Source: Candidatus Saccharimonadales bacterium
GTDB lineage: Bacteria; Patescibacteriota; Saccharimonadia; Saccharimonadales; OMJO01
Assembly (NCBI GenBank): GCA_035480035.1
Contig: DATIID010000001.1
Location: forward strand, 329,323 to 393,322
Length of the DNA stretch: 64,000 bases
Direction: 5' to 3'
A program made the translations under genes and the position numbers. Positions 5,981 to 59,069 of this stretch are shown one piece after another. Position 1 is the first letter of the stretch. The number at the start of each line of letters is the position of its first letter. The notes under the pieces were generated by a model, which saw only the letters and a program-made list of their open reading frames with translations, did not search any database and was not told the origin of the DNA.

Positions 5981-6061
5981 ATAATTGATTCTACTTGTTG
6001 ATAATACATAATGTCCAGTTGTTTAGGATATCAACCACAACCCATGAAACGAACTTAACTA

Positions 6062-30850: not shown

Positions 30851-30898
30851 TTCGTGTCTACAGAAATAGTCCACCGGACTATTCTGCCCGTATCTCCA
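30851..30898 (+). pseudogene. Partial, interrupted copy of the tRNA-Ala 3' end
   Basis: TTCGTGT, then a 29-nt hairpin (30858-30886), then CCCGTATCTCCA aligns to the tRNA segment TTCGAGTCCCCGTATCTCCA. Confidence 0.6.
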
Positions 30899-44208: not shown

Positions 44209-44820
44209 ATGAATCCTCCTGAAAAAGAGACTGGATTTGAAGATCTGCGTAAAACCATTGTAGACCTGCATAAACTACTCGAAAGTCATGAATTGCCTCA
44301 CGCTTTTGGCGGAGCGATTGCCTTAGCTTTTTATACCGAACCACGGGCCACAGCCGATATTGACATAAACGTTTTTCGACCAAAAGCTCAAGGTCCAGAA
44401 GTTTTACATATATTGAACAGTCAGATGTCGGCCGAGGAAGCCAAAATCCATGAAGAACATATCGAAAAATTTTATGGTGCGTCCGTTCCATATAAAGGTG
44501 CCGAGGTAGATTTGTTTTTCTCATTCACCGAGCTTCATGATCAAGCTGCCGAACGCATCCGAAATGTAGAATATAGAGATGTTAGTATTCCTATCATTTC
44601 ACCCGAGGACTTAATCATATTTAAAGTTATGTATAGCAGTAATCCTGATAGATTAGACCGTGACTGGCCCGATATCGCCGGTATGTTAATAAACCAATCG
44701 GGTAATCTAGACAGTGAATACATCCAGACTTGGCTGCATACTCTTTTACCAGATGACGATCCCAGGTTTAATCGACTCAGAAACCTGGGTTTACCAGAAC
44801 GCGGCGCAACAAATACCTAG
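44209..44820 (+). CDS. Nucleotidyltransferase-fold protein (AbiEii/MNT-like)
   Basis: The NTase signature FGGAIALAFYTEPRATADIDINV fits hG[GS]...D-x-D. Confidence 0.5.
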   Translation: MNPPEKETGFEDLRKTIVDLHKLLESHELPHAFGGAIALAFYTEPRATADIDINVFRPKAQGPEVLHILNSQMSAEEAKIHEEHIEKFYGASVPYKGAEVDLFFSFTELHDQAAERIRNVEYRDVSIPIISPEDLIIFKVMYSSNPDRLDRDWPDIAGMLINQSGNLDSEYIQTWLHTLLPDDDPRFNRLRNLGLPERGATNT

Positions 44821-47167: not shown

Positions 47168-47170
47168 TGA

Positions 47171-47404
47171 TTAACCCTTCACATTACGCGGATCATGTCC
47201 ATAGCTATTGCGTGAGCCAATTTCGCCATTCTTGTTATGTATTAGCTGTTCGACATGGCGATTTCTAGCCATCTCGCGGCCAATGGCTTGGGCTTCCTGT
47301 TTTGTTTCGTAAATCTTGCTTGGCCTTGAAGCGCCCTCTGTTATATTGCGCCAGTTGGCCGCCTGTTGGTTGTATGTTGTATGAATATTTGGTTTATGTG
47401 CCAT
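47171..47404 (-). CDS. DUF2188-like small protein (77 aa)
   Basis: It has the pattern W..........TKQEAQAIGREMARN...EQLIHNKNGEIGSRNSYGHDPRNVKG. An AGGAGGG Shine-Dalgarno lies upstream, and the next gene follows after 3 nt. Confidence 0.55.
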   Translation of the reverse strand: MAHKPNIHTTYNQQAANWRNITEGASRPSKIYETKQEAQAIGREMARNRHVEQLIHNKNGEIGSRNSYGHDPRNVKG

Positions 47405-47779
47405 TGTAAGCCCTCCTTGTTGGACCTTATCTTGATTGTCATTATTAGACCGAATTCTAAAACACAGTATTTATTTTGGAGCCTCCCCCTCAGTGCCTAT
47501 CACTGCGGTAAGTTGCCACCTCTTACCTAATTCCAACATACTCTTGTGGCGGACGTTTGCATATTGTAGAATTGTCCACATATAGCGTAATGCTTATGCT
47601 TATAGACGCTATACTTAGCGTTTGTGATTGTTAAGATTTGTCTTCAACTTTGTCAAAAATTATGTGAGCCTCTTTTTTAGAGACTTCGCCCGAAAACAGA
47701 TTGAAACTGACTGGCCAATCAATAAACAAAAAGCCTTGATCAAAATAGCTAATTTTACAATAAACTGCAGTGGCAACAG

Positions 47780-47808
47780 TTGCCCATAAGAAGAATAACA
47801 GGTATAAT
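47780..47808 (+). promoter_or_regulatory. Sigma-70-type promoter of the tRNA-Gly/tRNA-Phe unit: TTGCCC, 17-nt spacer, TATAAT
   Basis: TTGCCC is at 47780-47785 and TATAAT at 47803-47808. The tRNA starts at 47820. Confidence 0.5.
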
Positions 47809-47819
47809 TTGCACGTTCT

Positions 47820-47896
47820 GCGGGTGTAGCTCAGTTGTTTAGAGCGCTTCCTTGCCAAGGAAGAGGCCAGGGGTTAGAGTCCCCTCACCCGCACCA
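47820..47896 (+). tRNA. tRNA-Gly(GCC), CCA encoded, with non-canonical D and T loops
   Basis: The sequence is GCGGGTG-TA-GCTC-AGTTGTTTA-GAGC-G-CTTCC-TTGCCAA-GGAAG-AGGCC-AGGGG-TTAGAGT-CCCCT-CACCCGC-A-CCA. Confidence 0.85.
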
Positions 47897-47899
47897 AGT

Positions 47900-47975
47900 G
47901 GCTCTTTAGCTCAGTTGGTAGAGCAGAGGCTTGAAGAGCCTTGTGTCCCCAGTTCGAGTCTGGGAGGAGCCACCA
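47900..47975 (+). tRNA. tRNA-Phe(GAA), CCA encoded
   Basis: The sequence is GGCTCTT-TA-GCTC-AGTTGGTA-GAGC-A-GAGGC-TTGAAGA-GCCTT-GTGTC-CCCAG-TTCGAGT-CTGGG-AGGAGCC-A-CCA. Confidence 0.9.
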
Positions 47976-48013
47976 ATAAATGTTTCAGCCTTTGGGCTGG
48001 AGCATTTTTATTA

Positions 48014-48141
48014 TGTGTCCCGGACGAGAACTGGATTACTGCGAAGCAGTCAGTTCGGTGAAGCGAGGTCACGCGCAAATGCTTGCATTGAGCATGACCG
48101 AACGGAAAAGGACGAAGTCCGCTGTCTGGGAGGAGCCACCA
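48014..48141 (+). pseudogene. Interrupted copy of the tRNA-Phe 3' portion (variable loop, T arm, acceptor, CCA)
   Basis: It reads TGTGTCCC, a 29-nt insert (48022-48050), CAGTTCG, a 66-nt insert (48058-48123), then GTCTGGGAGGAGCCACCA. This aligns with 47942-47975. Confidence 0.65.
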
Positions 48142-48143
48142 GC

Positions 48144-48178
48144 AAGAATCTCAGTTATTACTGGGATTCTTTCTTTTT
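48144..48178 (+). terminator. Intrinsic terminator closing the tRNA unit; it overlaps the MazG stop
   Basis: An 11-bp stem AAGAATCTCAG/CTGGGATTCTT has a TTATTA loop and is followed by CTTTTT. Confidence 0.55.
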
Positions 48179-48481
48179 AAATCGACCGGCATCACGAGTT
48201 TCAAGCTTAGCTATTGCATCAAGTAATGGCTTATCCAGCTCAATGCCTTGGCTATTAGCTAAACAAATGACAGTGTAAATAACATCAGCTAGCTCATCGG
48301 CCAAATCTTCGTGCTCTTCAGTTGATTTCTTGGGTTTGTCGCCAAACTGGTGATTAAGAATGCGGGCAACCTCACCAACTTCTTCGCTTAAGCGGGCCAA
48401 AATACTAAGCGGACTCCAGTACGGTTTCTCATATTGCTGTAGCTCATTATCAATTCGCTGTTGATAGGTTTTTAGAGACAT
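48158..48481 (-). CDS. MazG-like nucleoside triphosphate pyrophosphohydrolase (small, single domain)
   Basis: LSEEVGEVARIL ... DLADELADVIYTVICLAN fits the EExxE / ExxD MazG pattern. Confidence 0.75.
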   Translation of the reverse strand: MSLKTYQQRIDNELQQYEKPYWSPLSILARLSEEVGEVARILNHQFGDKPKKSTEEHEDLADELADVIYTVICLANSQGIELDKPLLDAIAKLETRDAGRFKKKESQ

Positions 48482-49248
48482 TACTTGGATTCTTTTGACA
48501 AAAACTCTTTAACGCTCGAAATGGTATCCATGAATTGGGCAGGGAAGATAATCGTGCTGTTTTTCTCTGCCGAGATCTCAGCCAAAACTTGCAAGTTACG
48601 TAGCTGCAAAGCAATCGGGTGGGCATTAATGATATCCGCTGCATCGCCCAAAGATTTGGCCGATAATTTCTCGCCTTCGGCGGCAATAATTTTGGCGCGC
48701 TTTTCCCTCTCGGCCTCGGCCTCTTTGGCCATCGCCCGCTGCATGGTGTCTGGCAATTGAATATCTTTGAGCTCAACATTACTGACATAAATGCCCCACT
48801 TTTCAGTGGCTTTGTCCAGAATGCCTTTGACAGCTTCGTTCAATGCAACTGTCTCACTCAAGACATGATCCAGGCTTGTCTGGCCAACTACATTCCTGAC
48901 AGTAGTTTGCGCAATTTGATAAGTAGCCGACACCACGTTTTCGATTTCAACTATCGACTTAATTGGATCAGCAACCTGATAGTAAGCCACGGCGGCAACA
49001 TCAATTGATACATTATCTCTGGTTATAATTTTTTGAGTTTCAATCGGCAAGGTAACAGTTCGAAGTGAAACTTTACGCATTTGGTCGACAATTGGAATAA
49101 TTAAACGTAGCCCGGGCTGTTTAACACCACTTTGAACTTTACCAAGGCGGAAAACCACACCGCGCTCGTACTGATTGATTAACCGAATACCATTAAGAAT
49201 AATGATAATGCCAATGATTATCAGTACCACAATAAAAGCCGACATCAC
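48481..49248 (-). CDS. SPFH/band-7 (stomatin-like) membrane protein
   Basis: It has an N-terminal TM helix, [11 protein letters not shown] and a C-terminal coiled region [22 protein letters not shown]. Confidence 0.8.
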
Positions 49249-49351
49249 ACCTCCTGCTTACAGCTTTATTGTAGAAACTGTTGCAACACATAGCAAATAA
49301 ATAATCATGAGATTTGAGTTTTAAGCATAAAAAACGTACCATAACAGGGAT

Positions 49352-49435
49352 GCGCGAGTGGTGGAATGGTAGACACGCTTGTCTGAGGGGCAAGTGCCGC
49401 AAGGCGTGGAGGTTCAAGTCCTCTCTCGCGCACCA
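49352..49435 (+). tRNA. tRNA-Leu(GAG), type II, CCA encoded
   Basis: The sequence is GCGCGAG-TG-GTG-GAATGGTAGA-CAC-G-CTTGT-CTGAGGG-GCAAG, a long variable arm, GGAGG-TTCAAGT-CCTCT-CTCGCGC-A-CCA. Confidence 0.9.
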
Positions 49436-49533
49436 AACAATTCAGATATCCTGGGATATTTGAGTTGTTTGCATATGACAGGTCTTGAACCTTGGTCGAA
49501 AATGTCCTGTGGACATTTGAGTTTTCCTTGCTT

Positions 49534-49594
49534 GGCCGAGTGAGAAACGCATTTCGAACGAGCAATTAGAGTACAAGTCCTCTCTCGCGCACCA
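49534..49594 (+). pseudogene. Decayed tRNA-Leu(GAG) copy
   Basis: Its last 21 nt (49574-49594, CAAGTCCTCTCTCGCGCACCA) are identical to the tRNA 3' end. Its 5' part, GGCCGAGTG..ACGC, resembles GCGCGAGTG..ACGC with the D/anticodon region deleted. Confidence 0.55.
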
Positions 49595-49707
49595 GTGAAA
49601 ACGAATCTGTAAAACTAACTCATTCACCTAAAGTCTGTGATACAGCTTACAGACAAAACCAGCAATCAGCTTATAGTTGATAAGTTCAGGAGGTGCAGTA
49701 ATCATAT

Positions 49708-50004
49708 ATGGTTGAATCAGTACCGAACAGGGTTAGACGAGCCATTGGTGGTTTCCAGAGAACTGTACTTAACCAAGGTTACATTGATTATTTAACAGAT
49801 CGCGAAAAAGAGGAAAAAGAATATATTGACGGTCGCTTAGCCGAAATGGCCGGCCGGCTGGCGCTTAAACGCGAACGCCAGCCAAGTGAACGGTCCGACG
49901 AAGAATTCATTTTGGCCGAGGAGCTGTTTGATTTAGAGCGTGGACGAATTAAATTAGACCAGCCTGAAGCGGTTTCCTCGGTAACTGAGGAGTTGCCAAA
50001 ATAG
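49708..50004 (+). CDS. Hypothetical protein (98 aa)
   Basis: It is an ORF with an AGGAGG-like Shine-Dalgarno (caggaggtg) upstream. The sequence is charged and predicted helical, with no recognisable motif. Confidence 0.4.
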   Translation: MVESVPNRVRRAIGGFQRTVLNQGYIDYLTDREKEEKEYIDGRLAEMAGRLALKRERQPSERSDEEFILAEELFDLERGRIKLDQPEAVSSVTEELPK

Positions 50005-50072
50005 CATTTATATAATTTTGTCATTGAATCGCCATTAAAAAAGTGTATATTGAGTAATCAACTGAGGAAATT

Positions 50073-50537
50073 ATGGCACTTGCAAATGAATCAAAGACAG
50101 AATCGAGATTGACTGACGGCTTTATGGTAGCCCATACGCCGGTATTACATCGCGGCGATAAAGTTAATTCTACGATTCTAATTACAGCCGGCCTAATCGA
50201 AAGAGTAACTCTTCGGACACTCACTGGTATTGAGGATTATCCATCTTATGAATCTGCGAACTCAGCCCTAGCTAACTGGGTTGGCCGATTTGCTACCGAC
50301 GAACTATTGGATAACGAATTTAGGGCGTCCGGTTGGGATGCAAAGCGATACGATTCAATAGCTGATCTAGATAAGCTTGATCCGCGTCGACAATTGCCGT
50401 TTCTAATTCGTGGCCAAGAAGAGTTGGGTCGTTTAGTGATTTGTTCTGAGATAAATGACCCAGAAATGTTTGAAGTCGAAACTGAATTTACACCACGGGC
50501 GATTGATTTCTTAGAAGAAATCGGCGTTTTAGGGTAG
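50073..50537 (+). CDS. Hypothetical protein (154 aa)
   Basis: This is an ORF only, with a GAGGAA Shine-Dalgarno-like sequence upstream. Confidence 0.4.
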   Translation: MALANESKTESRLTDGFMVAHTPVLHRGDKVNSTILITAGLIERVTLRTLTGIEDYPSYESANSALANWVGRFATDELLDNEFRASGWDAKRYDSIADLDKLDPRRQLPFLIRGQEELGRLVICSEINDPEMFEVETEFTPRAIDFLEEIGVLG

Positions 50538-50601
50538 AATAATCGTCGAGTCAGCTGAAGCGCTTTGGTGAGTTAGCTGTTTATTAGTAGAATAAGACGA
50601 C

Positions 50602-50675
50602 GGCGCGATGGCCGAGGAGTTAGGCAAGGGTCTGCAAAACCCTGTACACGAGTGCGAATCTCGTTCGCGCCTCCA
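50602..50675 (+). tRNA. tRNA-Cys(GCA), CCA encoded
   Basis: The sequence is GGCGCGA-TG-GCC-GAGGAGTTA-GGC-A-AGGGT-CTGCAAA-ACCCT-GTAC-ACGAG-TGCGAAT-CTCGT-TCGCGCC-T-CCA. The discriminator is U73, as in Cys tRNAs. Confidence 0.85.
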
Positions 50676-50693
50676 TAGTAGTAATGAGACAAA

Positions 50694-50731
50694 CTAGTTA
50701 CCCCAAGAAGTAAACTTCTCGTGGACCCCGA
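50694..50731 (+). repeat. Hairpin element, copy 3 (degenerate): CTAGTTACCCCAAGAAGTAAACTTCTCGTGGACCCCGA
   Basis: It shares the ends CTA..ACCCCA and GTGGACCCCGA with the two copies at 52719 and 52773. The internal stem sequence differs but is still self-complementary. Confidence 0.6.
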
Positions 50732-50808
50732 GTACGGTTTTTCTCATCGCTCGTCAGCCAAGCTGAGTTTGCGAGCAAACCAAGCTCGCTGCTCTTTTCC
50801 CTTTAAGA

Positions 50809-50814
50809 TATAAT
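50809..50814 (+). promoter_or_regulatory. TATAAT -10 box upstream of tRNA-Leu(TAA)
   Basis: AGATATAAT ends 14 nt before the tRNA 5' end. Confidence 0.35.
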
Positions 50815-50828
50815 GCGGTTGACCACTC

Positions 50829-50916
50829 GGGCGAGTGGCGGAATTGGTATACGCGACGGACTTAAAATCCGTTGGCTGAATAAGCCTTGTGGGTTCAAGT
50901 CCCACCTCGCCCACCA
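50829..50916 (+). tRNA. tRNA-Leu(TAA), type II, CCA encoded
   Basis: The sequence is GGGCGAG-TG-GCG-GAATTGGTATA-CGC-G-ACGGA-CTTAAAA-TCCGT, a long variable arm, GTGGG-TTCAAGT-CCCAC-CTCGCCC-A-CCA. Confidence 0.9.
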
Positions 50917-50922
50917 TTTTTA

Positions 50923-52560
50923 TTAGCTGGTAGGCAAATGATTTAGTAAGTGATCAAGTGCGTAACTTTGACGAAGAAGCGGCTTGATATCATCGATTGA
51001 GACATTGACTTTAACACCTGGGTTGAGTGTGCCGTAGGGGTCAAAAATTTCCTTGAGCTTTCGAAACATTTCATAACGCTCATTACCATAAAGCTTCTTT
51101 AGGTAAGGGCCGCGCAAACGACCGTCGCCATGTTCGCCAGTCGTACTACCACCCAAATCAATCACCAAACTGTAATATTCATCAAGCAATTTAAACATTT
51201 TTTGACGATCACCAATCTGTGACAAATTCAGGAAGGGCTGGAAGTGCAAATTACCATCGCCGGCGTGTCCCCAAACAGCGGTATCAAGCGAGTATTTGCT
51301 AAATAACTCGTAGACTTTATCCAAATATTGTTTGAACTTGTCAATTGGGACTATTCCATCTTCTATAATTGGCAAAGGCTTGGCGCCATTGTTGGCTTGA
51401 TTGACTAACAAAGCCGCCGAATGACGAATTTTCCAAAGAGTTTCTTGTTGCTGTTCTTCAGTTTCAATTTGATAAGTAATCTGGTTTTTCTTAAGTAGTT
51501 TTTCAACCTTTTTAGTCATCTTTTTTTGAATACGATCAGACGAGTTATCGAATTCCACCAATAATATGAGTTTAGGAAATGGTTGTTTGACGATACCCTT
51601 TAGCAAGTTTGGATTGGTCTCATGAATAAAGTTAAGTAAATTAACATCAACGGCTTCCATAGCGCTTGGCCGTTCAGCAAATTTACGCAGTTCAATCATA
51701 ACTTCTTCAGCCAACTGCAAGTCATCAAAGAAGATTCCAATTAAGGTGCTGGATGGGTTATAAAGCTCGGTCTTTAAGGTAATTTCACTTACTACTCCGA
51801 GCGTACCTTGCGAGCCGACAAACAGTGGCGTCAAATCAAAACTACCATCTTTTCGTTTAACTTTATCAAGAGCGTAGCCGGCCGAGTTTTTGGTAATCGG
51901 CAGGTTCATCATGACCAAATGTTCGTGATTTTCTTCAATCAATTTATCAAGACTACGATAGACTTCGCCTTCAAAGGTTGATAAACCGAGCTTCTTATTA
52001 AGTTCGCGCTTACTTAACCGACCGGTGGTAATAACTTCACCATTAGCCAAAACAACCCGCAAAGTCTTAACGAAATCACGGGTAGACCCATACTTGATTG
52101 ACCGCTCGCCGCCGGCGTTATTGCCAACCGCCCCACCGACTGTACTAAATTCCAGTGAGGCTGGATATGGCGGCAAAAAACGTCCATGCGTGTGAAGAGT
52201 CTGTTGTAACTTACCATAGTTAATACCCGGCTCAACGACCACGGTGCCGACCTTGCCATCGAGTTCGATAATCCGATTCATATGAGCCGGAAAAACCATG
52301 ATGATACCACTGCCGAGCGCCGCGCCACTTTGATCGGTACCAAGCCCACGAGCCGTTATTGGCATAACCCGACCGCGTTCAGCTAACTGCCATGAGAAAC
52401 GGGTAACTTTACGAATATCATTTTCGTTTCGTGGATAAACAATAATCGAAGGCGTGACAGTTAACACGCTGCCGTCCGTCGAGAAATAAGCCCGCGCTTC
52501 CGTGCTGGTAATAACTTCTCCGGCCATGTGTTCTTGTAAATAATGTGCGACTTTGTTCAT
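50923..52560 (-). CDS. FAD-binding oxidoreductase (GlcD-like), paralog of 11264..12922
   Basis: It has TARGLGTDQSGAA, GGAVGNNAGGERS and GGSTTGEHGDG, the same architecture as the other copy. Confidence 0.75.
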   Translation of the reverse strand: MNKVAHYLQEHMAGEVITSTEARAYFSTDGSVLTVTPSIIVYPRNENDIRKVTRFSWQLAERGRVMPITARGLGTDQSGAALGSGIIMVFPAHMNRIIELDGKVGTVVVEPGINYGKLQQTLHTHGRFLPPYPASLEFSTVGGAVGNNAGGERSIKYGSTRDFVKTLRVVLANGEVITTGRLSKRELNKKLGLSTFEGEVYRSLDKLIEENHEHLVMMNLPITKNSAGYALDKVKRKDGSFDLTPLFVGSQGTLGVVSEITLKTELYNPSSTLIGIFFDDLQLAEEVMIELRKFAERPSAMEAVDVNLLNFIHETNPNLLKGIVKQPFPKLILLVEFDNSSDRIQKKMTKKVEKLLKKNQITYQIETEEQQQETLWKIRHSAALLVNQANNGAKPLPIIEDGIVPIDKFKQYLDKVYELFSKYSLDTAVWGHAGDGNLHFQPFLNLSQIGDRQKMFKLLDEYYSLVIDLGGSTTGEHGDGRLRGPYLKKLYGNERYEMFRKLKEIFDPYGTLNPGVKVNVSIDDIKPLLRQSYALDHLLNHLPTS

Positions 52561-52718
52561 AAATCTGTCTGACTCCCAAGTGCTTAACCTTAAAGCATTA
52601 GCGAGGCTATGAACAATATGATAACACAGCTAGCTCATCGAAGTTGGTTAGGAGTTGCTTTTAGGTGGCTTATAGCGTTAAGATTGAAAAGCTTTTAGCT
52701 TATGCGGATATGGCGGAA

Positions 52719-52754
52719 CTATACCCCACAAAGCAAGCTTTGTGGGGACCCCGA
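52719..52754 (+). repeat. Hairpin element, copy 1 (36 nt), inside the D loop of the split tRNA
   Basis: The sequence is CTATACCCCACAAAGCAAGCTTTGTGGGGACCCCGA. Removing it restores TGGCGGAATTGGTAGACGCG. Confidence 0.75.
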
Positions 52755-52772
52755 TTGGTAGACGCGCTAGTC

Positions 52773-52811
52773 CTACACCCCACAAAATGTTAAATTTTGT
52801 GGGGGCCCCGA
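52773..52811 (+). repeat. Hairpin element, copy 2 (39 nt), in the anticodon-loop region of the split tRNA
   Basis: The sequence is CTACACCCCACAAAATGTTAAATTTTGTGGGGGCCCCGA, with an 11-bp stem and the same termini as copy 1. Confidence 0.75.
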
Positions 52812-52828
52812 TCTTTAATTGAATTGAT

Positions 52829-52915
52829 GCCGCAGTGGTGAAATTGGTATACACGCTAGCTTCAGGAGTTAGTGAGCGCAAGCTCGTGGAGGTTCAAGTC
52901 CTCTCTGCGGCACCA
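52829..52915 (+). tRNA. tRNA-Leu(CAG), type II, CCA encoded
   Basis: The sequence is GCCGCAG-TG-GTG-AAATTGGTATA-CAC-G-CTAGC-TTCAGGA-GTTAG, a long variable arm, GGAGG-TTCAAGT-CCTCT-CTGCGGC-A-CCA. Confidence 0.9.
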
Positions 52916-53040
52916 TTTCGATTAAGGAAATGTGGTCTCCATTAAAGCCTTTAGACTTTAATGGAGATAAAGCAAAGGAGCTAGTGAGCGCAAGCTCGTG
53001 GAGGTTCAAGTCCTCTTATCCGCACCATAAAGGTAGTTTA

Positions 53041-54822
53041 TTAGTTTGCTACTTTGGCCTGACGAATCATCCAGTTATTAACATTTGAAAATCGATCGGC
53101 TTCAGTATTAACAGTTGTCGGGTCAAAGCCAAAAATTGGTTTTCGGCTTATGTATAAAAAGCGTGGTTGATAAAGCACAATCGCCGGGACATCATCACGC
53201 CAAGCTTGCAAAAACGGCTTATATTTAATTCTTCTAATCGTTGGGTCAGTACGACTGCGTCCAGCTTCTAGCGCCCTATCAGCCGTAAGTGATTTATACT
53301 CCGATAAATTAAGTCGATTGGTCGAATGTGGATCAGCTTGTGAACTATGCCAATAAACGAACACGTCGGGATCCGGACCAATCGAAATACCATAAAGTAG
53401 GGCGTCGTATTCATGACGCGCCACTGCACCTTGCAAATCAACTGCTGGTTCTAATTCAACTTCGGTAGTAACTCCTTCTCCTTGCCATTCAGTTTGTATT
53501 TTTTGAGTTAAATAAGTATATTCACTGGAGTTTCGAGCTAATAAGTGGACAATAAGCGGCTGACCGCCTTTCATGCGCATACCCTGTTTGTTTCTAACCC
53601 AACCCGCATCGTTGAGTAGTTTGTCACTTGAAGCAAGGTTATATTTATATTCCTTAAGTGAAGGATCGTAGCCAGTTTGGCCTTTTAATAAAGGTTCGTC
53701 GGCAATCACTACGGGAAAAGTCAGATTATTAATAATATCGGCTTGTTTTGTGGCTTGAGCTAAAGCCCGACGCACCCGAAAATCCTTAAGGTTGGGTGCG
53801 GTGGTCTTCAGAAAAACTACTACTTCACCACTAATCGGAATGTTGTAATTTTGTATATTTTTTTGTTTTGCCAAATTATCCGGGATATTATCAAGCCCCA
53901 CCATAGCGTCAAGTTCGTTATGGTTATAGCTGTCAATCATGTGCTTTTCATCACGGAATGAATGAATCGTAAGGAAATCAATATTGGGCCGACCACCATA
54001 ATATTGGTCGAAGGCTTTGAGACCAATTTTTTCTTCGCGAGTTTCGGGAGTATCGCCGCTAACCTCAATCTTTTCCAGTTTAAACGGGCCTGAACCGATA
54101 GCGTTCGTTGAGTTAAAGCGAACTGAACGTAGTTGGGTCGGTGGGACACTAGATAGTAAATGTTTCGGCACAATACCATTAGTTAACGAATACGGGAAAG
54201 AGCCCAGGGCATTTGGTAAGGTGAAAACAACCGTGTACTTGTCTTTTGCGACGACCTTTATTCCCTGCCAGCTGTTAAATAATGACGATTTGGCATCCGG
54301 ATTTTGGATAGTTTTGTAAGTAAAGACCACGTCATCAGCTGTCAGTGGCTGACCGTCATGCCAAAACAAATTATGGCGAAGTTGTATCGTAAAAGTGACG
54401 GCCCGGTCATCACTATGCCACTTGTCGGCTAAGTCACCGGTTAACTGATTGTTTTGATTAGTCTTAAGCAGACCCGAAAAAACTAGCCGAGAAACACTAC
54501 TATCAACAAGACCATTAGCATAAAGCGGGTTGGCGTTAGTAAATGATCCCAAAATACCTTCGTTAAACGTGCCGCCAGCGACCGGCTGAAGCGTTTGGTA
54601 ATAATTGCCCAGTACTATATTTTGAATAATTAAACTAGCGATTAAGACCACCATTAGGATTAACCAACCGGCAATAAAACGACGAACTTCCGTCAAACGG
54701 TTGACGCGACGGAAAAGATGTCTTTCCAAGTTTTCTTCTGCCTGAAGACCCATGTCTTCAACTTGGCGCCGACTCTGGCGAATTCGTCGTCGCCAACGCA
54801 ACTTGGTAGTTCGATCAATCAT
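53041..54822 (-). CDS. ABC-type peptide/nickel (family 5) substrate-binding protein, membrane-anchored, with no adjacent permease
   Basis: It has an N-terminal TM helix. Its size and motifs (FHDGQPLTADDVVFTY-like WHDGQPLTADDVVFTY, GSGPFKL) fit SBP family 5. Confidence 0.7.
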   Translation of the reverse strand: MIDRTTKLRWRRRIRQSRRQVEDMGLQAEENLERHLFRRVNRLTEVRRFIAGWLILMVVLIASLIIQNIVLGNYYQTLQPVAGGTFNEGILGSFTNANPLYANGLVDSSVSRLVFSGLLKTNQNNQLTGDLADKWHSDDRAVTFTIQLRHNLFWHDGQPLTADDVVFTYKTIQNPDAKSSLFNSWQGIKVVAKDKYTVVFTLPNALGSFPYSLTNGIVPKHLLSSVPPTQLRSVRFNSTNAIGSGPFKLEKIEVSGDTPETREEKIGLKAFDQYYGGRPNIDFLTIHSFRDEKHMIDSYNHNELDAMVGLDNIPDNLAKQKNIQNYNIPISGEVVVFLKTTAPNLKDFRVRRALAQATKQADIINNLTFPVVIADEPLLKGQTGYDPSLKEYKYNLASSDKLLNDAGWVRNKQGMRMKGGQPLIVHLLARNSSEYTYLTQKIQTEWQGEGVTTEVELEPAVDLQGAVARHEYDALLYGISIGPDPDVFVYWHSSQADPHSTNRLNLSEYKSLTADRALEAGRSRTDPTIRRIKYKPFLQAWRDDVPAIVLYQPRFLYISRKPIFGFDPTTVNTEADRFSNVNNWMIRQAKVAN

Positions 54823-54835
54823 GTATGGTACCTGT

Positions 54836-55048
54836 TTAAGCTACGATACCGAGAATCAGTGATGCAGCAAAAACAAAAACAGCTACAATTGTTATTTGAT
54901 GGAGAGTTTTGTCTGAGCCGCGACGCACGGTGTTAACTTCTCCACCGCCACCCAAACCAGCGCCCAAGCTAGCCCCTCGAGTTTGAATCATAATCAAAAC
55001 CGTTAGGATAAACATTGAGATAATGGTCACGTAGTTATAGATACTCAC
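54836..55048 (-). CDS. secG: Preprotein translocase subunit SecG
   Basis: It is a 70-aa protein with two TM helices and a Gly-rich loop (QTRGASLGAGLGGGGE). Confidence 0.7.
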   Translation of the reverse strand: MSIYNYVTIISMFILTVLIMIQTRGASLGAGLGGGGEVNTVRRGSDKTLHQITIVAVFVFAASLILGIVA

Positions 55049-55050
55049 TT

Positions 55051-55416
55051 TTAGGTCTCCTCCAAAATAGTAGTCACTAGATAGTTTACCAAGCCAATGA
55101 CCATACCAGCAAGCATTGCCGCGCCAAAATTGGTAACTTGTAGCCGTGGATAAAGTTTGCTGGCCAGGATTACCATCAACCCATTAATTACAATCATGAA
55201 TAAGCCAAGGCTGAATAACACTGCCGGTAAAGATAAAATTACGACGATTGGTTTAATGACGATGTTAATCAAGGCTAATACTAATCCGGAAATGATAATA
55301 ACGCCCAGACTGCTGTTGTAAGATACCCGATCACCACCCAATAAACGGGCGGCTATCCACAAGCCTAAGCCACAGACAAACCAACGCACTAAAAATCTGG
55401 TAAATGGTTTATTCAT
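55051..55416 (-). CDS. Small membrane protein, DUF360 / phage-holin-4-like family
   Basis: It is 121 aa with four TM helices, and its N-terminus (RFLVRWFVCGLGLWIAARLL) is typical of the family. Confidence 0.5.
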   Translation of the reverse strand: MNKPFTRFLVRWFVCGLGLWIAARLLGGDRVSYNSSLGVIIISGLVLALINIVIKPIVVILSLPAVLFSLGLFMIVINGLMVILASKLYPRLQVTNFGAAMLAGMVIGLVNYLVTTILEET

Positions 55417-55419
55417 CTT

Positions 55420-56685
55420 TTACTTTATTGTAAGCTGGGACAGCTCACGAGGCAAGGTAGACATAAGCTTTATGCCGGTTTGGGTAATTAGTACGTCATC
55501 CTCAATCCGGACACCAATTTCTTCACTCGGTATGTATATACCTGGCTCGACCGTAATGACCATGTTGGGTTTTATAATCTGATCCGGCTCTGTTACATCA
55601 TGAACATCAAGCCCCAGGGAGTGCGAGGTGGCATGTGGGTAATATTGGCGTACGGTTTTATGATTAATGGTTTTAATTAATCCGAGTTCGCGTAATTTTT
55701 CGCCCATATAATGTTCGATGGCATGTTCATAATCTTTCAAGCTTTGGCCAAGGCGAAGATAACTGAAAGCATAATCTTGAACTGACTCAACGGCTTTATA
55801 AATAGCTTGCAAACGTTTTGATGGCTGGCCAATTGAATAAGTACGGGTTAGATCGGCCGCGTAATTATCAATCTCGGCCCCCACATCGATTAGTAAGACG
55901 CCGTTTTTAACAATTGGCTGGTCATTCTTCATTTGGTGTGGGCTGGTGGCAGCCACTCCGCCGGCTACCATTGGTTCAAAGGCATGACCGTTAGCACCAC
56001 GTTTTCGAAAACCATTTAAAATCGCCGCCTCAACCTCATATTCATATTGATATTTGGGCAGCCGTTTCTGAACTTCTTTGAGCGTTGCTTCGGTAATATC
56101 TATGGCTTCTTGAATAACCATCAGCTCGTCAGGTTGTTTAATAACTCTTAGTCGTGATAAGTGAACCCTGAGATCAAGTAACTTAAGGCTTGAGTTAATA
56201 TGTTTAACTTGTTTGACTAATCTAGCTCTGGCCGGATTAGTGTACATGTTGTAAACCCCAACATAAGCCGGTGGTGGTGCTAGGACGGCAACGTGTTTGG
56301 CGCGTTTAAGACGCGAGCTTAAACGTTCCCAACCTTCGTGATAATCAAATATCTGGTCAATGCCCGATTGTTTGATTAGTTTGTCAGGATCAATATCGGC
56401 TTCCAAAGCTTGTTGGGCTCGACCACGCTCTGGCAAAATAATATATTCTTTGCCTTTATCAATAACCAACGTCAGATCCGGTTGATCCAGTCCGGTTAAA
56501 TACCAAAAACTGCTATCCTGCCGAAACGGATAAGTAACATCGCTGTTGCGCTGCACTAAACCATTGGCCGTAAGCACAATTGGTGCCTTACCCGCAAACA
56601 ATTCAACTAATTTTTGGCGATTGCCGATAAAGAAAGTAGTTTCAAATCGATTCTTCATAACAGATAGAGTATATAACAATTCCAA
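55420..56685 (-). CDS. pepP: Xaa-Pro aminopeptidase (M24B)
   Basis: It has the metal-ligand contexts DVGAEIDNYAADLTRT, HSLGLDVHD, TVEPGIY and IEDDV. The start may instead be the MKNRFE Met at 56658. Confidence 0.8.
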   Translation of the reverse strand: MELLYTLSVMKNRFETTFFIGNRQKLVELFAGKAPIVLTANGLVQRNSDVTYPFRQDSSFWYLTGLDQPDLTLVIDKGKEYIILPERGRAQQALEADIDPDKLIKQSGIDQIFDYHEGWERLSSRLKRAKHVAVLAPPPAYVGVYNMYTNPARARLVKQVKHINSSLKLLDLRVHLSRLRVIKQPDELMVIQEAIDITEATLKEVQKRLPKYQYEYEVEAAILNGFRKRGANGHAFEPMVAGGVAATSPHQMKNDQPIVKNGVLLIDVGAEIDNYAADLTRTYSIGQPSKRLQAIYKAVESVQDYAFSYLRLGQSLKDYEHAIEHYMGEKLRELGLIKTINHKTVRQYYPHATSHSLGLDVHDVTEPDQIIKPNMVITVEPGIYIPSEEIGVRIEDDVLITQTGIKLMSTLPRELSQLTIK

Positions 56686-58182
56686 TTATTTCGTTGACAT
56701 ATATTGGTAAATATTTTTAGCATTCTTTTCACCAGCTATTTTAGCGAGATCTGCTTGGCTAGCTTGCGAAACGCCCCGTGCTGAGCCAAAAGTCTTGATT
56801 AATTTCTTACGAGTGGCCGGTCCAACACCTGGGATTTCGTCTAGCAAACTAGCCGTTTGGCGCTGACCTTTGAGTGTACTGTGATAGCTGACGGCGAACC
56901 GGTGCGACTCATCGCGGATTCGTTGTAACAGCTTAATTAAATTTGTGCTGTGCGGTAAATTGAGTAAAACAAAATCCTCACTATCGGTTCGAAATCCACC
57001 AAGTTTGTGTAAAATTTCTTCGTTTACATCAACGTACGATTTTGTTTTATGAACGACAATTTGTTCTTCACGTTTAGCTAGCCCGATAAATGAAATTTGC
57101 GAATGACCCGATTCATCTCGCGCTCGCAGTGCAGCATCGAGCTGACCTTTACCACCATCGATTAAAACCAAGTCGGGTAAGCCCCACTTTTTGGTATTTC
57201 GCTCGCTTAGTCGCCGAGTCATGGTCTCATGCATGTTATAAAAATCATCGTTTTTATTTTGTTTGGTTTTAAATTTACGGTATTCAGTTTTGTTACTGGC
57301 GCCATTTGTGAACACCACCATACTGGCGACGACGTCACTGCCCTGCATGTGTGAGATATCATAACCTTCAATTCGCCGCGGCACCGCTGCCAGTCGCAGC
57401 AAATCAACTAACTCTGTAAGCGCATGGTCTTTACTAATATCCAAAAATTCTTTGTCCGAAAATACCACTTGTTTAGTCAAGTTCTGTAAAGCAAATAGTT
57501 GATTACGGACCTTGGCGGCTGCTTCAAAATCTTTAGCACGGGCGTATTTATTCATGTCTTTTTCAAGATCTTTAATAATTTGCGTACGGTTACCTTCAAT
57601 GTAAGAAATTAACTTGCGTAAATTAGCTCGGTAATCTTCAAGACTAGTTTTATGGCTTTCCAATCCGGGGTCCAACCCTAAATGATAGTGCAAACTAGCT
57701 CGCTTTTGACCGGGCGTCTGCCTGGTGGCAAATGGGAAAGCCCGGCGCAGTAGTTTTAAAGCCGTTCTGACACTTAATGTACTGAGGTATGGGCCAAAGT
57801 AACGAGCGCCATCATCAAGCGGTCGACGAGTCGTACTAACGGTTGGGTAGTCGCTATCGTAATCAATCCGTATGTAAACCATGCTTTTGTCGTCACGCAG
57901 TAAAATGTTGTAGCGCGGCATGTAGCGCCGGACCATCTCGGCTTCCAAAAACAAAGCATCAAGTTCCGTCTCGACTTCAACCCAATCCAAATCTGCAATT
58001 TCACTAACTAAAGCTTCGGTTTTAGGATCGCGTGCCCGTGACCTTTGAAAATACTGGCGTACGCGATTATTTAGTCGAGCGGCCTTGCCGACGTAAATAA
58101 TTTCACCGCTAGCTTCTTTATGAAAATAAACGCCCGGCTTCTTTGGCAATTGTTTTAGTTTTTTTGCAATTAGCTCATTCAT
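56686..58182 (-). CDS. uvrC: Excinuclease ABC subunit C (short form, 498 aa)
   Basis: It has a GIY-YIG N-terminus (GVYFHK...IYVGKA), a UVR-like helix, the endonuclease domain and a C-terminal (HhH)2 (IPGVGPATRKKLIKTFGS). Confidence 0.85.
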   Translation of the reverse strand: MNELIAKKLKQLPKKPGVYFHKEASGEIIYVGKAARLNNRVRQYFQRSRARDPKTEALVSEIADLDWVEVETELDALFLEAEMVRRYMPRYNILLRDDKSMVYIRIDYDSDYPTVSTTRRPLDDGARYFGPYLSTLSVRTALKLLRRAFPFATRQTPGQKRASLHYHLGLDPGLESHKTSLEDYRANLRKLISYIEGNRTQIIKDLEKDMNKYARAKDFEAAAKVRNQLFALQNLTKQVVFSDKEFLDISKDHALTELVDLLRLAAVPRRIEGYDISHMQGSDVVASMVVFTNGASNKTEYRKFKTKQNKNDDFYNMHETMTRRLSERNTKKWGLPDLVLIDGGKGQLDAALRARDESGHSQISFIGLAKREEQIVVHKTKSYVDVNEEILHKLGGFRTDSEDFVLLNLPHSTNLIKLLQRIRDESHRFAVSYHSTLKGQRQTASLLDEIPGVGPATRKKLIKTFGSARGVSQASQADLAKIAGEKNAKNIYQYMSTK

Positions 58183-59069
58183 TAAACGGCCAGGGCTTCG
58201 GCATGCCGGCTACAATAAGTTGTTTTTTGGGCACAATTTTGGCATGCCAAAATTAAATCGTTGCAAGATTTATCAGCACAGTTAATAAAATTCGAAGTTT
58301 TTTGTCGACAGTGGCTACATTTGCCAATATCTTTAGCTTTGTCACTGAATGACATGGTCATACGTTTATCAAAAACGTATAACTTGCCCTCCCATAACCC
58401 ATCGTCTTTATATTTTTCGCCATATTTAGCAATGCCGCCCTCGAGTTGATAAACCTCTTTGAAGCCACGGTTTTTCATTAGACCGGTTAAAATTTCACAG
58501 CGAATACCGCCAGTACAATAGGTCACTATTGGTTTATTTTTTAACTTCTTCATTTTGGGTTGTTCAAGTTCTTTAATAAAGTCGCGAGTTGTCCGGGTGT
58601 CGGCAATCACGGCGTTTTTAAACTTGCCGACCTCAGCTTCATAGGCATTGCGACCATCCATAAACACCACGTCGTCACCACGCTGTTCGATTAATTTATG
58701 AACTTGCTCAGGTTTCAAGTGTCGGCCGTTGCCAACTACACCCTTGTCGTTTATCTTTAGCTCATTTGTCGCTAAAAAGGTGACTATCTCTTTGCGAACT
58801 TTAATTGATAGCTTAGGGAAATCACTGGCCGAGCCATCACTCCATTTGTACATAATTTTCTTAAACAGTGGATGCAGATTCATGGCTTTTTTATAAGCTT
58901 TTAGGCCTTCCACAGGACCACCAAGCGTACCGTTAATACCGTCTTTACTGATGATAATCCGGCCCTTCAGACCATGCCGCTCACAAAGCTCGCGTTGCCA
59001 ATACATAACCGTTACCGGATCGCTAATTGGTACAAATTTGTAATACAAAATTATCTTTTCCATTGGCAA
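58182..59069 (-). CDS. trhO: Rhodanese-domain protein of the UPF0176/TrhO (YceA) family, a putative tRNA U34 hydroxylase
   Basis: It has an N-terminal YYKF..I, the rhodanese active-site loop YCTGGIRCE and a Cys-rich C-terminus. Confidence 0.7.

Follow-up and report, generated by a model that had tools for sequence, protein, structure and literature searches.

The locus described here lies within a 64-kb stretch of DNA (hereafter the window) from a Candidatus Saccharimonadales bacterium (Saccharibacteria, TM7) and consists of a complete tRNA-Leu(CAG) gene enclosed between the two halves of another tRNA-Leu gene, which we call the inner and the outer gene, respectively (Table 1). The nest had been noticed in a sequence-only reading, and all the elements described there were found again at the same positions. 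They include the identity of positions 52983–53016 with 52871–52904, the complementary outer acceptor GCGGATA/TATCCGC (7/7 pairs, with the remaining outer stems also intact), an outer D arm that differs in 1 nt from that of tRNA-Leu(TAA), and the pairing between the 12-nt flanks of the inner gene (TCTTTAATTGAA/TTCGATTAAGGA, referred to below as the clamp), made of 10 Watson-Crick and 2 G:U (G:T) pairs. The inner gene and the outer 3' piece form a direct repeat of 53 nt with 91% identity (52864–52916 and 52976–53028). The inner CCA and the 3' relic are only 59 nt apart, and the arms of the perfect 12-bp hairpin are similar to those of the clamp (8/11 and 9/11).

Table 1. Features of the nested tRNA-Leu locus, with positions counted from the first letter of the window.
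Feature	Position	Strand	Description
Relic tRNA-Leu(CAG), 5' piece a	52704–52718	+	Acceptor GCGGATA, TG, D-stem GCG, GAA
Palindromic hairpin element, copy 1	52719–52754	+	36 nt, inside relic D loop; order CTATA-CCCCACAAAGC-AA-GCTTTGTGGGG-A-CCCCGA
Relic tRNA-Leu(CAG), 5' piece b	52755–52772	+	D-arm remainder and anticodon-stem 5' strand (TTGGTAGACGCG CTAGT C)
Palindromic hairpin element, copy 2	52773–52811	+	39 nt, at relic anticodon-loop break
Inverted repeat (clamp), 5' arm TCTTTAATTGAA	52812–52823	+	Followed by 5-nt spacer TTGAT to 52828
Inner intact tRNA-Leu(CAG), presumed functional	52829–52915	+	ARAGORN; Rfam RF00005; stems all paired
Inverted repeat (clamp), 3' arm TTCGATTAAGGA	52917–52928	+	Begins 1 nt past CCA
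Perfect 12-bp hairpin TCTCCATTAAAG/CTTTAATGGAGA	52936–52967	+	
Relic tRNA-Leu(CAG), 3' piece	52973–53027	+	Loop remnant CAAAGGA, then anticodon-stem 3' strand, variable arm, T arm, TATCCGC, ACCA

By the canonical criteria for a bacterial tRNA the inner gene is complete. ARAGORN calls it as tRNA-Leu(CAG), its Rfam RF00005 score is 53 bits (gathering score 29), every stem is paired, and A73 and the CCA end are encoded. It is identical to the outer gene at 70/85 positions (23/33 + 47/52) and is a second, divergent Leu(CAG) allele. It is also presumed to be the working tRNA.

The outer gene, once its inserts are removed, matches at 81/85 positions (30/33 + 51/52, the second figure being that of the 3' piece) an uninterrupted tRNA-Leu(CAG) found in a relative (locus L006). 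Its 5' piece a equals positions 1–15 of that gene, position 7 excepted, and a compensatory pair is seen here (A7:U66 in the outer gene, G7:C66 in L006). The L006 gene sits between SBP_bac_5 and FAD-oxidase genes, the same two neighbours that the nest has in the window. Because of this identity to an intact gene at the same locus, the outer halves are the ortholog of the relative's tRNA-Leu(CAG), i.e., the former resident gene. Since both genes have the same anticodon identity, the outer one cannot supply a missing isoacceptor; it had been suggested that it might be required if a TAG or CAA tRNA were lacking, and a Leu(CAG) fills neither gap.

Contrary to a canonical gene, the outer one is not contiguous: its D loop is interrupted by an insert of 36 nt and its anticodon loop by one of about 200 nt. 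ARAGORN fails to recognise it, even after removal of the hairpins and with a permitted intron length of up to 300 nt. The program accepts the joined halves as a tRNA-Leu once a 7-nt loop is supplied. The acceptor, D, anticodon, and T stems are all perfect in the window. With the inserts taken out the loop reads C32 ... (CA)AAGGA, with neither U33 nor CAG (at best AAG after A33); splicing cannot regain the UUCAGGA loop, and simple excision cannot rebuild a 7-nt anticodon loop. The outer shell would be a young pseudogene, its stems being intact and its anticodon loop destroyed.

Inverted repeats of 11–13 bp surround the inner tRNA in the window and, among the loci fetched from other genomes, in L094 and L166 (twice), with a shorter one in L196. 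Their geometry is constant (the 5' arm ends 4–7 nt before +1 and the 3' arm begins 0–3 nt past the CCA) and their sequences are unrelated. Repeats of this type were seen at no other tRNA among 107 examined. A general leader-trailer stem of the tRNAs of this organism was considered and rejected, as it is absent at the 8 other tRNAs of the window and at about 100 in the fetched loci. The leader/trailer duplex of the inner gene reaches −25.9 kcal/mol, compared with −3.6 to −9.9 for those other 8 tRNAs, and for two random 20-mers of the window, an uninterrupted stretch of 12 or more pairs has a p of 0.00085. The nest region (324 nt) folds at −136.7 kcal/mol (z = −7.9), with the nest itself as the minimum-free-energy fold. 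The recurrence of the clamp is not predicted by a simple insertion model.

A −10-like TTTAAT lies inside the 5' arm of the clamp, 11 nt upstream of the inner tRNA, at a spacing comparable to the one between TATAAT boxes and their tRNAs elsewhere in the window, and is a candidate promoter for the inner gene. Because this box lies within the arm, the 5' arm may not be transcribed together with the inner tRNA. The sequence-only reading had proposed that the clamp could hold the outer halves together; the pairing stands, being real and recurrent, but one of its arms may be missing from the transcript. A scan of the locus for consensus promoters and terminators gave no full promoter and nothing useful. 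The motif CTTTAATKGA occurs 7 times in the window (0.6 expected); it was dropped as a signal, four of the copies lying outside the locus in ordinary coding context.

Both hairpins within the relic belong to a widespread palindromic element (CCCCACAAA...TTTGTGGGGNCCCC) of 30–40 nt, present in many copies. At the relic they are simple hairpins with single-stranded tails of 5 nt and 6–7 nt. The window has two exact copies of the pattern (0 expected) and a degenerate one. The element occupies the same D-loop position in the relics of L094, L166, and L032, and its sites comprise intergenic DNA, tRNA relic loops, loops of structural RNA genes, and a 23S rRNA expansion. Among the matches listed, it was found at more than 120 loci in GTDB species genomes, with 49 further loci in JGI (stricter pattern) and 7 in IMG/VR, all 7 of the Clostridia type. 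In several phyla it is the core of MITE-like repeats of 100–250 nt, and several genomes have multiple copies with common flanks. The stem CCCCACAAA/TTTGTGGGG plus NCCCC is conserved in many phyla, while other stems of the same G/C frame are nearly absent from the fetched loci (134 vs. 3), and in many Clostridia copies GGAGG comes next.

There was no visible target-site duplication at 8 insertion sites, and neither a terminal GTAG nor an associated transposase gene was found. When the ORFs lying up to 2.5 kb from 120 listed loci were compared with each other by all-against-all BLASTP, no family recurred, and no ORF is conserved just downstream on the opposite strand. Rfam gave no family for the element in 17 hairpin-bearing loci (gathering threshold), and a literature search with the sequence string returned unrelated primers only. 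Hairpin elements appear to survive only in RNA-gene loops that are redundant or tolerant.

Nests of the same kind, with as many as three shells, surround Leu(CAA), Gln, Phe, and Leu(CAG) genes of other Saccharibacteria. The L094 nest (Leu-CAA) has a D-loop hairpin element, a perfect 13-bp clamp, a hairpin, and the 3' piece, and the L166 nest has three shells with their own clamp at each level. In L153 (Gln) the hairpin element is in the anticodon loop of a tRNA-Gln relic, and L006 has a Phe nest without the CCCCACAAA element. The nests of L094 and L166 are at a common sortase-linked locus, with sortases 37% identical. A hairpin stands directly 5' of the displaced 3' fragment at every relic examined. 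In L166-A, L166-B, and L196 the first anticodon base is where the 3' relic starts; in the window the start is either there or one base later. Relics are arrayed in pairs in L006 and L196, and the sequence past the inner CCA in L196 and in the window resembles the native downstream flank of the relic. The tRNA loci of this lineage are scarred in general, because the window has three further 3' relics, of the T-loop class, downstream of Phe, Leu-GAG, and Ala; fragments of this class also lie downstream of Phe and Gly in L006.

The outer shells of these nests go from pristine to clearly decayed. In L094 the outer anticodon stem and T stem retain 2/5 pairs each, L166-A keeps 5/7 of the acceptor and 1/3 of the D stem with a 6-nt loop, positions 26–34 are missing in L166-B, and the 3' relic of L196 is 89% identical to its gene. 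The sequence-only reading had named decay of the outer halves in relatives, together with two further conditions, as a sign of a pseudogene, and these homologous nests do have broken outer stems. The perfect stems of the outer shell in the window would fit a functional RNA, and a young relic fits equally.

Comparison with relatives, also called for at the outset, gave the uninterrupted L006 ortholog and, where the sampling was without bias, mostly plain genes. At the sortase-linked Leu(CAA) locus an unbiased sample (n = 4) contained three plain genes and one with relics. The SBP-FAD locus is plain in L191, bears only scraps of a T arm in L006 and L007, has Leu(GAG) instead in L193, and in L190 contains a nest in the same orientation as in the window. 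The nest is therefore sporadic and not conserved, given that three of the four loci sampled without regard to the hairpin are plain, and an ancient conserved architecture was rejected on these grounds; it is further contradicted by shells that resemble the tRNA of their own lineage. The nest of the window is inverted with respect to the gene in L006, L007, and L191, which requires an extra rearrangement and speaks against an insertion model.

The explanation that we favour, with a probability of roughly 0.8, is that a resident tRNA-Leu(CAG) was broken by inserts that include a complete second Leu(CAG) gene, the outer halves being a pseudogene shell left by insertion at the DNA level and not a spliced split tRNA. 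It draws on the orthology of the outer gene, the redundancy of the anticodon, the recurrence of the layout, the decay of older shells, and the sporadic distribution. The resident gene would have been broken in the anticodon loop, around positions 32–35, and the segment of roughly 160 nt now in the break would comprise the divergent tRNA-Leu(CAG), ~17 nt of its own upstream sequence, the inverted repeat, and the terminal hairpin. The dead gene would also have received two copies of the palindromic element, one at the break and the other in the D loop, and the inner gene would have taken over, leaving the outer halves as a relic. The inserts presumably arrived as DNA, by one tRNA-bearing unit or by two or more separate events. 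Site specificity of the insertion is probable, given that in four Leu nests the 3' relic starts with the first anticodon base (in the window, that or the next). Of the two readings proposed from the sequence, the destruction of a tRNA gene by nested insertions is thus supported by the orthology of the outer gene to an intact Leu(CAG) at the same locus.

The other of these two readings, an interrupted or split tRNA that is still matured, would have RNase P and RNase Z free the inner tRNA, the hairpins excised or tolerated, and the halves ligated or held by the clamp, to give a second tRNA-Leu. Such an RNA would be in keeping with the four intact stems, the nest-shaped fold, the acceptance of the spliced halves by ARAGORN with the loop supplied, and a clamp pairing that is maintained by different sequences in four nests. 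The hairpin element also lies inside an otherwise well-conserved 23S rRNA and is therefore tolerable in a working RNA, and group I introns are common in Patescibacteria tRNAs (PMC13011429). Even so, we consider a functional outer gene very improbable. By orthology it is a Leu(CAG) like the inner one, and there is therefore no need for it; no excision restores U33 plus CAG, the best case being CAAAGGA. The junction ends GGAA/.../UUGG cannot pair and offer no bulge-helix-bulge (BHB) geometry; by inspection for 3-nt bulges and a 4-bp helix, neither these nor CUAGUC/.../AGGAGC form flanking helices. No match to a group I core or another ribozyme appeared: an Rfam scan of 47000–54500 (E up to 1) gave tRNAs only, one of the L166 nest (E up to 5) gave no ribozyme, intron, or known sRNA, and all matches over three scans were tRNAs, RNase P, a TPP riboswitch, and noise. 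Pfam matches to EndA or RtcB were absent among the 56 ORFs scanned, which are part of one 64-kb window; a gene for RNase III is present at 17015–17713. In sister nests the outer stems are broken or segments are missing, and in most relatives the genes are uninterrupted. A bacterial pathway that excises D-loop inserts is not known.

A misassembly that fused two strain alleles of tRNA-Leu(CAG) into a nest might be thought of for an organism known from metagenome assemblies only, with short-read contigs that end inside repeats. However, it is scarcely credible, since two contigs of a short-read MAG assembled independently (GCA_964572305.1) match the window with 100% identity over 49382–52883 and 52829–58822 and have 55 nt in common within the 5' half that only the inner tRNA has, and at least five unrelated assemblies from different projects show the same architecture. 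A more serious competitor, although still improbable, is that the shell is what remains of several events of tRNA-targeting integrative elements (attL/attR scars of tyrosine integrases) plus deletions. The 3' half would have been moved away by an event in the anticodon loop and the 5' half left by a further event or a partial tandem duplication, with the element bodies deleted later from what is a streamlined genome. A direct repeat from the anticodon loop to the 3' end, downstream of an intact tRNA and with the same start in L166 (twice) and L196, is the signature of integrase sites that fall into the anticodon-loop class, and the T-loop-class fragments of the window and L006, the relic pairs of L006 and L196, and the flank-like sequence after the CCA in L196 and the window agree with it. 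There is also a precedent of a recombinase-bearing element that left a 5' tRNA fragment upstream of an intact gene (PMC3293823). Classical integration, however, gives a hybrid gene without a 5' fragment, whereas here a 5' fragment is present and pairs with the displaced 3' fragment. The outer pieces match one another in complementarity but do not match the inner gene, and one gene was therefore split around a complete foreign gene. The mere 59 nt between the inner CCA and the 3' relic also count against it, no integrase or element body lies between or beside the repeats, and clamps are not predicted. Integrase, transposase, and other mobility genes were not found in 0.8–30.2 kb and 35.9–64 kb of the window, nor were integrase, recombinase, and transposase domains beside the nests of L166, L094, and L153.

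Some other routes were also discarded. On paper, inversion between inverted copies, unequal crossing-over, and simple tandem duplication do not yield mutually complementary outer pieces around a whole gene. An ordinary TIR-type MITE is unlikely, as the arm sequence is not shared and a target-site duplication is absent. When the complete nest was searched with BLASTN in INPHARED (phages) and PLSDB (plasmids), generic tRNA-Leu similarity was all that appeared.

A bolder version of the insertion explanation, which we put forward as a speculation and deem rather unlikely, is that the nest is the footprint of a recurrent, site-specific "tRNA replacement cassette" in Saccharimonadia that enters tRNA-Leu just 5' of the anticodon, kills the gene, and substitutes for it. 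Such a cassette would have ~130–200 bp and no ORF, and its parts would be a −10 box, a complete tRNA-Leu, inverted-repeat arms of 11–13 bp that lie 4–5 nt ahead of +1 and 0–1 nt past the CCA, and a hairpin at its end. It would amount to a selfish or "homing" tRNA gene that is moved in trans and whose recognition depends on structure, not on sequence. If this were true, the multi-shell nest of L166 would record successive invasions, and the hairpin element and a T-loop "T-element" would be more small elements targeting tRNA-gene loops. A search for the T-element in IMG/VR gave 5 matches, all of them chance and inside coding sequence.

For annotation, the outer halves should be treated as a tRNA pseudogene and not counted as an extra or split tRNA. 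The tRNA loci in these episymbiont genomes of roughly 1 Mb look like graveyards of tRNA fragments and small structured elements, where nesting would have replaced whole genes repeatedly and independently (Leu-CAG, Leu-CAA, Gln, and Phe). Should the anticodon break, the inverted repeats, and the terminal hairpin, with their constant geometry, be the work of a dedicated mechanism, it would represent a new route of turnover or horizontal replacement for essential single-copy RNA genes, and a bacterial analogue for the models that derive archaeal split tRNAs from mobile-element insertion. The hairpin element, with its cross-phylum stem, is an uncharacterised repeat worth defining.

Small palindromic elements within genes or RNA genes are known from several systems, such as the Rickettsia palindromic elements, REP/REPIN, Correia elements, and the intervening sequences of 23S rRNA. 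The hairpin element is like them in being small, palindromic, multicopy, and located in intergenic DNA and RNA-gene loops; it differs in a stem conserved across phyla and in that no target-site duplication, terminal GTAG, associated transposase gene, or Rfam family was found for it. As to the nest itself, sublocation classes of integrase sites in tRNA genes, including an anticodon-loop class, were reportedly defined by Williams in 2002. tRNA gene fragments that come from integrated elements, as attL/attR direct repeats, have been described (van der Gulik et al., 2023, PMC9897764). The nest resembles these in its intact tRNA followed by a repeat of the 3' part, starting from the anticodon loop (here) or the T loop (Phe, Leu-GAG, and Ala), and in being a non-functional by-product at tRNA loci, which are hot spots. 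It is unlike them in its matching 5' fragment upstream, with a whole gene enclosing a whole gene, in an "element" of ~160–200 nt with no integrase, in the inverted repeats at the inner tRNA, and in the palindromic elements within the relic loops.

A model of tRNA disruption was proposed for Caldiarchaeum subterraneum, where an insert of 1.8 kb encodes a recombinase (Sugahara et al., 2012, PMC3293823). Both cases share a 5' tRNA fragment upstream of a complete gene for the same isoacceptor, but that one is an archaeon with a 1.8-kb recombinase insert and a complete gene with spliced BHB introns, and ours a bacterium with a tiny ORF-less insert and no splicing motif. Archaeal split, permuted, and multi-intron tRNAs (Nanoarchaeum, Caldivirga, Pyrobaculum, and Thermofilum; Chan et al., 2011, PMC3218864) and the disrupted tRNA genes of Cyanidioschyzon (PMC3728597) are similar in form, with interruptions in the D and anticodon loops and complementary sequences that could join the halves. 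Those genes are the sole copy of their isoacceptor, have a BHB at every junction, and are cut by EndA and ligated by RtcB to regenerate a perfect tRNA, while the nest has no BHB, excision restores neither U33 nor CAG, and an intact gene with the same anticodon lies inside. The group I introns described in tRNA genes of Patescibacteria, some of them at position 35/36 (Nakagawa et al., 2026, PMC13011429), have a core, which is undetectable here (Rfam, E up to 1); the insert of the nest contains a tRNA gene, and its exon junction cannot be rebuilt. With them the nest shares the phylum, a nearly identical position in the anticodon loop, and an interrupted gene that is missed by standard annotation tools.

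The nest, in which the two halves of an outer tRNA-Leu gene enclose a complete tRNA-Leu(CAG), is a tRNA gene relic, of a known kind but in a new form. All the details of the sequence-only reading were borne out by direct reading and by repeat, tRNA and pattern tools, including the 34-nt identity between outer and inner genes, the fully paired outer acceptor stem (7/7) and the clamp, i.e., the inverted-repeat arms flanking the inner tRNA, with 10 Watson-Crick and 2 G:U pairs. Its complementarity is far above chance (p = 0.00085 for random 20-mers of the window to share a run of 12 or more contiguous pairs), and such a leader/trailer duplex is absent in all the other 8 tRNAs of the window. The nest is also the fold of the region (z = -7.9). 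Mis-assembly was ruled out by two contigs of GCA_964572305.1, a short-read MAG obtained independently for this organism, which are 100% identical over window positions 49382-52883 and 52829-58822, because they overlap within the unique 5' half of the inner gene.

Features of the nest, its surroundings and comparable nests in other Saccharibacteria (window coordinates unless a locus is named)
Feature	Position	Strand	Basis or remark
Degenerate copy of the ~120-nt element, still able to pair	50684-50800		between tRNA-Cys and tRNA-Leu(TAA)
FAD-linked oxidase	50923-52560	minus	flanking gene of nest
Outer 5' piece, part a: GCGGATA-TG-GCG-GAA	52704-52718	plus	direct reading
Hairpin element copy 1, 36 nt	52719-52754	plus	direct reading, pattern search
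Outer 5' piece, part b: TTGGTAGACGCGCTAGTC	52755-52772	plus	direct reading
Hairpin element copy 2, 39 nt	52773-52811	plus	direct reading, pattern search
TCTTTAATTGAA-TTGAT, 5' of inner tRNA		plus	direct reading
Complete tRNA-Leu(CAG)	52829-52915	plus	ARAGORN; Rfam 53 bits
T-TTCGATTAAGGA, 3' of inner tRNA		plus	direct reading
Perfect 12-bp hairpin	52936-52967	plus	repeat search
Outer 3' tRNA piece, ending TATCCGC-A-CCA	to 53027	plus	direct reading
SBP_bac_5 solute-binding protein	53041-54822	minus	flanking gene of nest
L094 nest: GCCGCTGTGGCGGAA / element in D loop / TTTGTATACGTGCACC / TTTCAAATTACAT-TGAA / intact tRNA-Leu(CAA) / ATGTAATTTGAAA / hairpin / 3' piece
L166 three-level nest round intact Leu(CAA)	about 5200-6100	minus	Ga0157372_10000008
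L006 tRNA-Phe nest: positions 1-54 with different D-loop hairpin / 20 nt / intact gene / terminator / 3' relic
L190 nest: positions 1-13 / 16-nt D-loop insert / positions 19-32 / 18 nt / gene / hairpins / 3' relic

With the insertions removed, the outer pieces are identical at 30/33 and 51/52 positions to the uninterrupted syntenic tRNA-Leu(CAG) of a relative (L006), a compensatory A7:U66 versus G7:C66 being among the few differences, but at only 23/33 and 47/52 positions to the inner gene. Because of this better match, the outer gene is identified as the ancestral resident Leu(CAG) gene, whose former anticodon loop was UUCAGGA; the comparison thus decides the outer anticodon, which had been left undefined. 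The inner gene (acceptor GCCGCAG, D stem GUG/CAC) represents a second and divergent Leu(CAG) allele. Since both share their anticodon identity, the outer gene is not needed for any missing TAG or CAA isoacceptor, and the earlier suggestion that it might be required in such a case falls.

A search for the hairpin motif in GTDB species genomes and in JGI metagenomes yielded other Saccharibacteria loci with this layout. The inverted repeat around the tRNA-Leu(CAA) of L094, with ATGTAATTTGAAA as its 3' arm, is perfect over 13 bp, and the 3' piece begins in the anticodon loop. The levels of the L166 nest each come with a separate inverted repeat (GTTCTTTTATATC/GAGATAAAAGAAC and TTGGTAATATT/ATATTACCAA) and a separate hairpin. 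L153 has a tRNA-Gln(UUG) nest in which the element lies in the anticodon loop and the outer segments match the inner gene at 100% identity. In L032 the element occupies the D loop of a 5' relic of tRNA-Pro. Nests lacking the element also exist (L006 tRNA-Phe and L190), the latter sharing both its SBP-FAD locus and its orientation with the window nest.

The sequence-only reading had offered two explanations, a gene destroyed by nested insertions or a split tRNA that is still matured. The latter is very unlikely. Of the outer anticodon loop, C32 is left at the 5' side and (CA)AAGGA at the 3' side. U33-C34-A35-G36 is not restored by any excision of the inserts, and the best outer junction, CAAAGGA, would give an AAG anticodon preceded by A33. 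No bulge-helix-bulge geometry was seen at the outer junctions, nor did an Rfam search reveal a group I core or any further family; together with the redundant anticodon, this leaves the split-tRNA reading unsupported. Older shells, i.e., outer broken pieces, are damaged, which favours a relic: the L094 outer gene pairs 2/5 in both anticodon and T stems, L166-A pairs 5/7 in the acceptor and 1/3 in the D stem and has a 6-nt loop, L166-B lacks positions 26-34 entirely, and in L196 the 3' relic, itself interrupted, shares only 89% identity with its gene. All stems are intact in the window shell, which must thus be young. A sortase-linked Leu(CAA) locus is common to L094 and L166, and four further loci of this kind were drawn via sortase homologs, independently of the hairpin; three of the four hold a plain gene and a terminator, and the fourth, L196, shows a short clamp as well as 3' relics. 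The nest layout is not conserved, again favouring a relic. Each shell is most like the tRNA of its own lineage, so the nests arose independently and recently, not by inheritance. Comparison of the locus in relatives, proposed earlier as a check, revealed plain genes in most of those sampled and outer-shell decay elsewhere, which along with the L006 orthology supports destruction by nested insertions.

The nearest database homologs are labelled Candidatus Saccharimonadales or Saccharibacteria; setting aside the organism's own sequences, identity does not go above about 71%. The SBP / tRNA-Leu / FAD-oxidase order is also present in relatives: L191 is plain, L006 and L007 have only T-arm scraps and L193 has Leu(GAG), so that tRNA identity varies too. 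The tRNA lies in one orientation in L006, L007 and L191 and in the other in the window (52700-53030) and L190, and inverted T-arm scraps are found close by; this locus is a rearrangement hot spot. In L190 (GCA_034521515.1, 3700-3860) the 'intact' tRNA-Leu(CAG) has CCTCTCGCGC and the downstream relic CCTCTCTCGCGC, which makes the called gene 2 nt short in the T-stem/acceptor region and the relic 3' end full; an assembly slip in a CT repeat could explain this, as could a real defect.

How the nest formed has to accommodate a complete gene inside a broken resident one, two outer pieces that belong together and, in the window, an inner gene that is a different allele of the same isoacceptor. Classical integration produces a hybrid gene and no 5' fragment. 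Given the 5' fragment, and as neither an integrase nor a transposase turned up among the ORFs scanned in the window (0.8-30.2 and 35.9-64 kb) or next to three other nests, we infer that a small tRNA-bearing unit was inserted at the DNA level into the resident gene; it would have consisted of the tRNA with its trailer and hairpin, preceded by some 17-20 nt that include a -10-like box. The main alternative is a multi-step origin. The window nest is inverted relative to L006, L007 and L191, which needs an additional rearrangement. In L166-A, L166-B and L196 the first anticodon base is where the 3' relic of the Leu nest starts; in the window the start is this base or the one after it. These positions suggest a site-specific break, as in the anticodon-loop class of tRNA-targeting integrases. 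T-loop-class 3' fragments occur downstream of Phe, Leu(GAG) and Ala in the window. The inverted repeats hugging the inner tRNA have unrelated sequences and constant geometry; they occur at the Leu loci of the window, L094, L166 and L196 (shorter there) and are absent from all other tRNAs among 107 examined.

The hairpin element, CCCCACAAA-loop-TTTGTGGGG-N-CCCC, is a specific motif: among hairpins with its G/C frame in the fetched loci (0.93 Mb), 134 have the ACAAA stem versus 3 with any other. It was found in more than 120 species genomes among the matches listed (loci L009-L184), from many phyla, including Clostridia/Oscillospiraceae, Acidobacteriaceae, Sphingomonadales, WOR-3, Dehalococcoidia and Campylobacteraceae. 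Often it makes up the core of 100-250-nt repeats that are present in several copies and have lineage-specific flanks, as in Clostridia, Acidobacteriaceae, Sphingomonadales, Campylobacteraceae and others. The Saccharibacteria copies at tRNA relics lie in their D or anticodon loops. In L170 (Ga0105238_10053407, 2259-2369) the element is part of a ~108-nt insertion at bacterial LSU rRNA model position 312/313; the rest of this 23S rRNA gene is well conserved, scoring 1487 bits across the 1926 model positions that are present. It also forms the apical hairpin of a conserved ~120-nt element (ATGAGAcAA ... small hairpin ... hairpin element ... TTTCTCATCGC ... hairpin ... GCTGCTCTTTTCC), present too in L142, L150, L158 and L174; the window copy has a diverged apical hairpin (CCCCAAGAAG/CTTCTCGTGG plus ACCCCGA) with pairing retained. 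This longer element has no Rfam match and may be an unannotated Saccharibacteria ncRNA or repeat. For the hairpin element, no partner protein or associated gene was found in the fetched loci, nor a target-site duplication or an Rfam family. It is probably a small palindromic insertion element that would persist only where harmless, in dead tRNA copies and tolerant rRNA loops.

Other scars were seen in the window. Two 3' tRNA relics, one downstream of tRNA-Phe (48014-48141) and one downstream of tRNA-Leu(GAG) (49494-49594), carry a structured T-element of about 80-105 nt, as do relics in L006, L032, L153 and L166; of the two successive outer shells in L166, the one that has it comes from a different Leu isoacceptor-like gene (GGGCGAG type). 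The T-element is inserted after the T-stem G-run (in L032, after the GGG anticodon of tRNA-Pro) and reads (U)GAGAAC-hairpin-(C)AGUUCG ... GAAG ... hairpin, followed by a T-loop-to-CCA fragment. Its first hairpin shows compensatory changes between copies (GAACUGCC/GGCAGUUC, GAAAUGCC/GGCAUUUC, AAAUGUCC/GGACAUUU); it has no Rfam match, and its IMG/VR matches are due to chance. A 12-nt copy of the tRNA-Ala(GGC) 3' end (CCCGTATCTCCA, 30887-30898) lies 64 nt downstream of the intact gene, directly preceded by a hairpin (CAGAAATAGTCC-ACC-GGACTATTCTG), with the likely original terminator 3' of the copy. A leucyl-tRNA synthetase ORF (19437-22331, minus, 964 aa) has an unusual architecture, in that its editing domain is immediately followed by a NUDIX hydrolase domain (residues 386-517). 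A few kb upstream of the tRNA-rich region (47.8-53 kb), a plus-strand ORF (44209-44820) weakly matches the AbiEii nucleotidyltransferase toxin of type IV toxin-antitoxin systems (E = 1.3e-4, just below the Pfam cutoff).

The points of note are the recurring Russian-doll replacement, the inverted repeats hugging the inner tRNA and a hairpin element common to many phyla. Two systems have only a formal likeness to the nest, the split or multi-intron tRNAs of archaea (PMC3218864) and the group I introns in Patescibacteria tRNA genes (PMC13011429); of their defining features, the bulge-helix-bulge motif, a precise excision that yields a functional tRNA and the group I core were looked for in the nest and are lacking. 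The nearest known phenomena are the tRNA gene fragments that remain from integrated elements (PMC9897764) and the model for Caldiarchaeum, where an element carrying a recombinase leaves behind a 5' tRNA fragment, with a complete gene downstream of it (PMC3293823).
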